Source: Octopus vulgaris (lineage: Eukaryota). From it: a stretch of 64,000 nt of DNA. Shown piece after piece: positions 51,987-52,894 of the stretch. The stretch is from assembly GCA_951406725.2 (NCBI GenBank), contig OX597822.1, positions 9,672,001-9,736,000 on the forward strand. Direction: 5' to 3'. Position numbers and translations under genes: made by a program. The notes under the pieces were generated by a model, which had not been told where the DNA came from, made no database searches, and saw only the letters and a list, made by a program, of their open reading frames with translations. Each line of letters begins with the position of its first letter. Position 1 is the stretch's first letter.

Positions 51987-52018
<32 letters not shown>

Positions 52019-52224
52019 ATTCTCTAAAAGAGATATAGACAGTAACTGCTCGATAACATAAGGGACTAAAGCCATCTGAATATGGCTAGGGACAGGGCAG
52101 GGTGGTGGGGGTGTTACTGTTGCATTTAGCCCCAGGCGAACATCGACGTCACCAGAAAGGCTCGACACCGTCACGGTGCCCTTAACCTGCAAAGGGAGGT
52201 AATTCCCCGATGAAGCGGAAACCA

Positions 52225-52270
52225 CACACGGACCATGGTTTCAAGGTGTATTGCCTATCGTCGGCGTGTG
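52225..52270 (-). ncRNA. Type I hammerhead ribozyme (CCGACGA core)
   Basis: Exact reverse complement of 52640-52685. Confidence 0.75.
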
Positions 52271-52639
52271 GTAGGCTTCCGCTTCCTCGACGAATTCTCA
52301 CTCTGCAGGATATTCATATATAGATTTTCAAGCAAAATACATTTGCTGATTTCGAAAATCTGTTCGAAAGCAATAATAATTCTCTAAAAGAGATATAGAC
52401 AGTAACTGCTCGATAACATAAGGGACTAAAGCCATCTGAATATGGCTAGGGACAGGGCAGGGTGGTGGGGGTGTTACTGTTGCATTTAGCCCCAGGCGAA
52501 CATCGACGTCACCAGAACTCTTTTAGAGAATTATTATTGCTTTCGAACAGATTTTCGAAATCAGCAAATGTATTTTGCTTGAAAATCTATATATGAATAT
52601 CCTGCAGAGTGAGAATTCGTCGAGGAAGCGGAAGCCTAC

Positions 52640-52685
52640 CACACGCCGACGATAGGCAATACACCTTGAAACCATGGTCCGTGTG
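52640..52685 (+). ncRNA. Type I hammerhead ribozyme (CCGACGA core, GUC triplet)
   Basis: cacacg CCGACGA t agg caataca cct t GAAAC catg GTC cgtgtg; helix I extends through gaagcggaa/ttccgcttc. Confidence 0.75.
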
Positions 52686-52853
52686 TGGTTTCCGCTTCAT
52701 CGGGGAATTACCTCCCTTTGCAGGTTAAGGGCACCGTGACGGTGTCGAGCCTTTCTGGTGACGTCGATGTTCGCCTGGGGCTAAATGCAACAGTAACACC
52801 CCCACCACCCTGCCCTGTCCCTAGCCATATTCAGATGGCTTTAGTCCCTTATG

Positions 52854-52894
<41 letters not shown>

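Follow-up and report, generated by a model that had tools for sequence, protein, structure and literature searches.

A candidate non-LTR retrozyme of Octopus vulgaris, apparently young, with a Penelope-type insertion footprint

Animal non-LTR retrozymes are known to give RNA circles in coral, mussel and axolotl, and Penelope-like elements (PLEs) have been proposed as their helpers (PMC7229834, PMC7761336, bioRxiv 10.64898/2026.07.22.740005). Both the helper and the copying mechanism are proposed rather than shown in the text of these papers. The PLEs themselves leave an unusual footprint. Often only one of the two ends of a PLE carries the tail (PMC8557442 sections 6 and 15). In vitro, PAc extends both DNA strands, with the tail lying between two internal start sites (PMC11167929). 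Copying from a circular template is already a hypothesis for PLE tandems (PMC4209133), while the origin of tandem and inverted PLE insertions with a one-sided tail is still described as open (PMC8557442 section 15, PMC11167929). For Octopus vulgaris, a paper on the repeats of this species reports recently active Penelope families, and its main text uses neither the word 'ribozyme' nor the word 'retrozyme' (PMC13282606). Among the papers listed on octopus retrozymes, Penelope hammerheads and rolling-circle copying or twin priming by Penelope, none concerned the family described here or a paired-end rule for retrozymes, although supplements may list cephalopods.

We describe a hammerhead-bearing repeat in a stretch of 64,000 nucleotides of the octopus genome (contig OX597822.1, positions 9,672,001 to 9,736,000; hereafter the window). 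The element consists of two arms that abut with no gap between them, and its parts are collected in Table 1. Repeat comparison confirmed a 340-nt inverted copy, seen in a preliminary description made from the sequence alone: 52053-52392 and 52518-52857 are 100% complementary, lie 125 nt apart and have (TA)n on both sides. That description had also given the start of a second unit as 143 bp. The partial tandem is indeed identical, but its length is 145 nt (52013-52157 and 52373-52517, 100% identical at a spacing of 360), because two bases common with the TA tract had been omitted.

Table 1. Parts of the element and its hammerhead motifs, in coordinates of the window
Feature	Position	Strand	Source
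Left (TA)n tract, belonging to the presumed target microsatellite	51986..52015	.	
Left arm, 505 nt (1.4 units), ribozyme sense on minus	52013..52517	-	
Tail, about 40 nt, at the left-arm outer end only, between two inferred reverse-transcription start sites	52013..52052	-	
One full 360-nt unit, 46.7% GC, no ORF over 50 aa	52015..52374	-	
Type I hammerhead motif, left arm; predicted cut 3' of 52231 on minus	52225..52270	-	descriptor scan
Right arm, 340 nt (0.94 unit), ribozyme sense on plus	52518..52857	+	
Type I hammerhead motif, right arm	52640..52685	+	descriptor scan
Right (TA)n tract	52855..52898	.	

We define the unit as 52015-52374 of the window. In these terms the left arm spans unit position 359 to position 143 of the next turn. 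Its outer end, which carries the tail, is the 'long' start site (position 359; the family mode is 355), and the outer end of the right arm is the 'short' start site at position 39. The tail, a concept that we take from PMC8557442 section 6 and PMC11167929, measures 40 nt in the window copy and 44 nt in most copies. The earlier impression that there is no real ORF was correct, as the longest ATG ORF of the circularised unit has 50 aa on one strand and 35 aa on the ribozyme strand. Retrozyme target-site duplications, when present, exceed 4 bp; here both flanks are TA tracts, so a target-site duplication is unreadable at this locus.

A hammerhead descriptor applied to the whole window returned a type I motif on the plus strand (core start 52646, predicted cut 3' of C52679) and another on the minus strand (core start 52264), with 0 matches in each of 5 shuffled windows. 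The complete motif that had been noted in each arm is thereby recovered, one on each strand. In the right arm, helix I is formed by 52640-45 and 52680-85, the core CCGACGA occupies 52646-52 and carries the change U4C, the helix II region extends over 52653-67, GAAA over 52668-71 and the palindromic helix III over 52671-78, with C17 at 52679. At its base, helix II has a U-U mismatch. For the extended stem of helix I the fold gives z = -7.0, and the whole unit as a circle has a predicted compact fold of -118 kcal/mol (z = -5.7, 60 shuffles). Counting against the retrozyme reading, the minimum-energy fold of the monomer contains helix I but not the catalytic junction. Rfam, which the preliminary description had suggested for a hammerhead check, was scanned as well and gave 27 matches at E of 1 or below, with no hammerhead among them.

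The U4C core deserves some attention. In vitro this change lowers activity considerably, while it still allows viroid infectivity (PMC3088659), and hammerheads that are active as dimers keep a palindromic helix III through different sequences (PMC4209133). The same C4 core is present in one of the PLE families described below, with a 775-aa protein, and in an unrelated repeat with 4524 exact matches. That three unrelated high-copy families of one genome share it suggests that U4C hammerheads are viable.

When the genome (2.80 Gb) was searched with the unit, 791 candidates came up, and the 40 of them that were scored contain 180 matches. The ribozyme core is matched exactly 424 times genome-wide, its reversed control 0 times. 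By extrapolation about 160 loci would carry the unit family, the first 100 listed matches falling into 38 loci. Unshared substitutions amount to 0.28% across the mapped loci, with the degraded L064 and L068 left out. Judged by these figures, the family is young and dispersed, with many near-identical copies. The earlier proposal of a recently mobile, non-autonomous, hammerhead-bearing element of retrozyme or Penelope-like kind is supported, and the further copies and head-to-tail arrays that it had led us to look for were found, with arms of up to 10.8 units; L031, for example, has 4 units matching that of the window. In 5 of 8 sequencing runs (X1, X2, X3, X6 and X16) a 390-nt contig exceeds the unit by 30 nt, which shows the unit closing on itself in those runs. 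What kind of library they are is a guess, an identical contig would come from tandem DNA arrays, and we do not count this for the circle. None of the runs listed with the unit is on record as RNA, which counts neither way, and the genomic arrays are compatible with a circle but fall short of showing one. The window flank at 50760-51585 has almost no cover in four runs.

The unit also has sister subfamilies, which are 357-362 nt long and 76-93% identical to it. A 29-nt motif that the unit shares with them exists in two forms, for which the exact matches number 2040 and 784. The canonical core is found in an older, abundant relative. When 18 ribozymes from several subfamilies are aligned, 88% of cells pair, against 11-55% in slid controls, and two-sided changes affect the first two helices as well as the palindrome of helix III. 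Among related sequences such covariation is overcounted, and two of five measures are no better than shuffles. The hammerhead structure is kept across subfamilies, with compensatory changes.

The arrangement of the window copy recurs throughout the family. We mapped 68 loci, namely the window copy, 39 top-scoring matches, which are biased to long arrays, and 28 loci taken in positional order from the core matches. Two arms are present at 51 of these loci and one arm at 16, one locus being irregular, and the ribozyme 5' ends face inward in all 51 two-armed loci. Of the 120 outer ends, 47 group at unit position 355 and 46 at position 39. These two kinds of end come in pairs: a long end is combined with a short one at 46 of the 51 two-armed loci, two long ends are never combined, two short ends occur once (at 39 and 53, the second being non-standard), and four loci have one non-standard end. 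The positional subset alone gives the same pairing in 18 of 20 two-armed loci. So does a sister subfamily sampled at 28 loci, with long and short ends in 18/18 simple two-armed loci, a count that leaves out the complex L280; its arms reach 14.7 units. Pure TA of at least 10 nt lies outside 104 of the 120 arm ends. The start sites are about 44 nt apart, and this 44-nt stretch corresponds to the PLE tail. The family thus carries several features of a PLE-type footprint, i.e. an inverted truncated copy with a partial tandem, a one-sided tail and a microsatellite target. Non-LTR retrozymes lack LTR, PBS and PPT, and no LTR-like layout was seen in the 68 loci.

Arrays with at least two whole ribozymes in one arm could be sources of new copies. 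They are found at 39 of the 68 loci and at 10 of the 28 in the positional subset. The window copy, which has one ribozyme per arm on opposite strands and is predicted to release no monomer, is probably a dead end; read-through of it would form a 340-bp hairpin. At three sister loci (L269, L272 and L278) we observed near-perfect palindromes of 7-8 kb, composed solely of the 360-nt sister unit. We also considered a tail hairpin linking the two start sites. This is present in the fold of the window unit at z = -1.1, and was recovered neither in an older subfamily nor in either PLE; the L104 stretch in that comparison missed the tail, and the candidate was rejected.

Sequence variants tell us something about the template. 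The two arms of a locus agree at 82 of 88 variant-carrying sites, against a permutation mean of 0.20 and maximum of 0.35 (2000 permutations). Locus-private variants occur in all units, in 6/6 for the unit family and in 22/22, 12/12 and 9/9 for the sister set, and the 22 units extend across both arms. In the 68 loci the predicted cleavage site was passed 206 times and was a stop 4 times, with 3.5 stops expected, and in the sister set there were 202 passes and 3 stops. An enrichment of arms ending at the ribozyme cut, which we had entertained, is therefore rejected, and substitutions are not raised at the cleavage junction. Read-through combined with private variants in all units implies that the template runs on without a break over the cut and that the sequence of a single monomer is copied many times. 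The preliminary description had proposed a circular or multimeric template, and one continuous across the unit gains support here; a circular RNA is its simplest reading. Two arrays count against a single monomer circle. At L038 (G000:C14:72706492-72710741) successive units switch among haplotypes present at other loci, and at L047 they switch among variants, so for these mosaics the one-circle model needs switching between templates or a mixed source.

The lengths of the arms are informative about their origin. In the 46 loci with a long and a short end, the short-site arm is the longer in 15 and the long-site arm, beyond the tail length, in 29. Arm lengths are uncorrelated, and unfixed private variants are mirrored between arms in 6 cases of 80. 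It seems that reverse transcription took place in two separate runs, each arm starting from its own fixed site. A single template switch, put forward previously as the origin of the inversion, is not supported at loci in which either arm may be the longer and which have two fixed start sites.

Two PLE families of the octopus genome are candidates for the helper. They were drawn from a GIY-YIG search that gave 148 matches in 150 scored of 6136 candidates, and further PLE families lie among the remaining candidates. One family (L175-L190) has intact 781-aa frames with reverse transcriptase and GIY-YIG domains, a 39-nt tail and close relatives with a U3-A8 hammerhead core. The other, very young family (L194 and L220-L239, e.g. 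G000:C14:47994790-47997980) has 775-aa frames of the same composition, copies that are 99.5-99.9% identical and 150/150 scored matches identical over 180 aa; its U4C hammerhead is accompanied by an AC-rich tail and by full-length tandem copies (about 4.27 kb). In both families a Cys-rich linker precedes the C-terminal GIY-YIG nuclease. Such a linker has been tied to Neptune and to TA targeting (PMC8557442), and both families seem Neptune-like, as assigned from linker and nuclease layout rather than from a tree. Both end in TA, and in each the 3' end comes in two versions, separated by about 30-48 and 39 nt. Among 21 insertions examined in the 775-aa family, 10 could be seen at both ends, and in 10/10 of these a tailed end is combined with an untailed one; the same holds for 2/2 of the 781-aa family.

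The unit and these PLEs have no sequence in common that we could find. Comparison by blastn with 45 and 20 stretches at GIY-YIG and reverse transcriptase matches, and by nhmmer with a subfamily profile, detected no pLTR similarity, so the suggestion that the unit might be a PLE pLTR found no match in these 65 stretches. Linkage of the unit to PLE ORFs, which had been raised alongside it, was likewise absent from the stretches tested. They contain no retrozyme-PLE fusion but only separate repeat insertions (L194, L185 and L220); at L220 a unit copy and a PLE of the 775-aa family stand side by side across one TA tract, unfused. A 13-nt match of the long end of the unit to the PLE stop-codon region is AT-rich, not significant and probably due to chance, and was set aside. 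As no sequence link was found in the stretches compared, the helper is inferred from the common footprint and similar age.

On this evidence we consider it probable that the unit is a non-LTR retrozyme copied by Penelope machinery of the Neptune type, with two primers acting on one RNA that is likely circular. A source array with at least two ribozymes in one arm would be transcribed, and its hammerheads, probably as dimers formed through the palindromic helix III, would release monomers that are ligated into circles. A PLE protein with reverse transcriptase and GIY-YIG activities would then cut both strands of a (TA)n tract, and each 3' end would prime cDNA on the same RNA, at unit positions of about 355 and 39. 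Each cDNA would roll round the circle for 0.1 to about 15 turns before the ends of the two cDNAs are connected, at points that vary, and repaired. It counts against this scheme that PAc in vitro used uncut RNA and showed no strand difference in start site (PMC11167929).

The closest competitor keeps the two-primer Penelope insertion and replaces the circle by an uncut linear multimer transcribed from an existing array, the U4C ribozyme being weak or inactive. Read-through of the cleavage site, which the arms cross with neither stops nor scars, fits such a template equally well and counts against our preference for a circle. The lowered activity of U4C in vitro (PMC3088659) and the uncut RNA that is the dominant substrate of PAc (PMC11167929) both point the same way, and heterogeneous source arrays could have given rise to the mosaics at L038 and L047. 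However, arms of up to 14.7 units, and private variants in all units of both arms, require either recopying of a monomer or a longer homogeneous source for each haplotype, and an inactive ribozyme sits poorly with a structure kept across subfamilies that are 76-93% identical and older. We therefore regard the uncut multimer as unlikely, while giving it more weight than the alternatives that follow.

The units might instead be 5'-truncated pLTR fragments of an autonomous PLE family outside those we found. The tail, the inverted copy, the TA target and a hammerhead with palindromic helix III are all PLE hallmarks (PMC8557442, PMC4209133), Xenopus retrozymes share sequence with pLTRs (bioRxiv 10.64898/2026.07.22.740005), and our PLE candidates were examined only in part. 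Yet many-unit arms return to the same 360 nt and never enter coding sequence, 51/68 loci consist of two unit arms alone, and neither PLE family matches the flanks on the inner side of the 20 loci with one arm or an irregular layout, which makes this origin very unlikely. Even less credit is due to a single reverse transcriptase that makes the inverted arm by folding back or switching onto its own cDNA. Such a process would explain why both arms have one haplotype (82/88 sites) and why 6/80 unfixed private variants occur in both arms. Its copy cannot exceed its source, though, and either type of arm is often the longer one (15 and 29 loci of 46); moreover, the end of the second arm is invariably a fixed site abutting TA. 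Finally, a perfect palindrome of 340 nt is what an assembly artefact from fold-back long reads could look like. Against this, the two flanks are not alike, the arms have unequal lengths and a constant offset between their ends, and the same design is met at dozens of loci on many contigs, and also in PLEs, so that we attach next to no weight to an artefact.

Returning to a Penelope-copied retrozyme with a likely circular template, the substitutions themselves may hold a further clue. On the ribozyme strand A>G makes up 9 of 21 locus-fixed changes and 6 of 87 single-unit changes (Fisher p = 0.0002), in a spectrum that leaves out L064, L068 and L093 and in which polarity is not fixed for all sites. 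The sister replicate gives 3/11 against 3/43 (p = 0.09), and among rare variants alone the bias is not significant (6 against 2, p = 0.15). RNA editing is extensive in coleoids. One reading of the A>G bias is A-to-I editing of the RNA template, and another is polymerase bias. Tentatively, and with more doubt than confidence, we may combine these elements: one Penelope dimer would engage both start sites of a circle and roll two cDNAs, with A-to-I edits founding new haplotypes. The same joint reading, held with equal hesitation, would have both TA strands primed and the retrozyme recognised without any sequence in common with that of the Penelope protein.

Several other repeats of the window are worth recording. 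An older, diverged relative of the unit lies at 48760-49190 (nhmmer E 8e-15). It combines a partial tandem with a short inverted piece, and its core at 49147 is of C3U type. An unrelated minimal hammerhead with the U4C core occurs at 36347-36380 on the plus strand and at 9395-9428 on the minus strand; this is the repeat with 4524 exact matches genome-wide, and it is short and ends at a microsatellite. Between TA tracts and adjoining the element on its left, a high-copy repeat (51741-51986) has inverted arms of 41 nt (95%) and, at just one of its ends, about 55 additional bases; this may be a further passenger of the PLE type. On the right flank, again between TA tracts, 52905-53083 resembles by eye the minus strand of the 36280-36480 repeat and includes a degenerate hammerhead-like stretch near 53009-53045. 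Overlapping frames of 219 and 352 aa at 38976-40609 (+) have RVT_1 and weak zf-RVT matches and are the frameshifted 3' part of a non-LTR retrotransposon rather than of a PLE. Microsatellite series in the same order at 44800-45600 and 46734-47420, about 1.93 kb apart, suggest a local duplication.

The family is useful because its youth keeps a clean record of single insertions, in which two sites are used once each, on one haplotype and for many turns. Together, two young PLE families with intact ORFs and a 360-nt RNA make helper and mechanism testable in one reaction, and the 775-aa family is a good candidate for biochemistry.

How does the unit compare with the systems already described? It is close to the metazoan non-LTR retrozymes (PMC7229834; bioRxiv 10.64898/2026.07.22.740005), for which mussel units measure 350-390 bp and tandem units generally about 150-450 bp, a range that includes the 360 nt found here. 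Both are non-coding tandem repeats with a GC content under 50%, a type I hammerhead in each unit and a weak palindromic helix III, and both co-occur with PLEs; the U-U mismatch at the base of helix II is shared with the axolotl HHR_Amex2. The unit differs in its U4C core, and its cleavage and circles are predictions. Two-armed palindromes with two fixed start sites form most insertions here and are undescribed for retrozymes in the text of these papers that deals with them. The Xenopus retrozyme families have 21 PLE matches, whereas our unit has no pLTR homology in 65 stretches.

With the endonuclease-bearing PLEs of the Neptune type (PMC8557442, PMC11167929, PMC4209133) the unit has in common the partial tandem, the inverted truncated copy, the tail at one end, the (TA)n target and internal start sites downstream of the hammerhead. 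In contrast to these, it lacks an ORF with reverse transcriptase and GIY-YIG domains between pLTRs, and it forms a closed repeat of 360 nt, not a gene-flanking pLTR. Its tail of 44 nt is not AC-rich on the ribozyme strand, compared with PLE tails of 30-40 nt in these papers, and its ribozyme has a long helix I where that of PLEs is of minimal form. The non-autonomous Chlamys PLEs such as MRC1 are, like the unit, non-coding passengers with multicopy head-to-tail arrays and microsatellite targets (PMC8557442). As described there, they usually resemble their autonomous partner at the 3' end and are mostly without canonical hammerheads, whereas the unit carries a hammerhead and shows no similarity to a partner that we could detect. 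In summary, the unit, by all appearances of its sequence, is a young member of a published class, and what is new is the quantitative insertion footprint.
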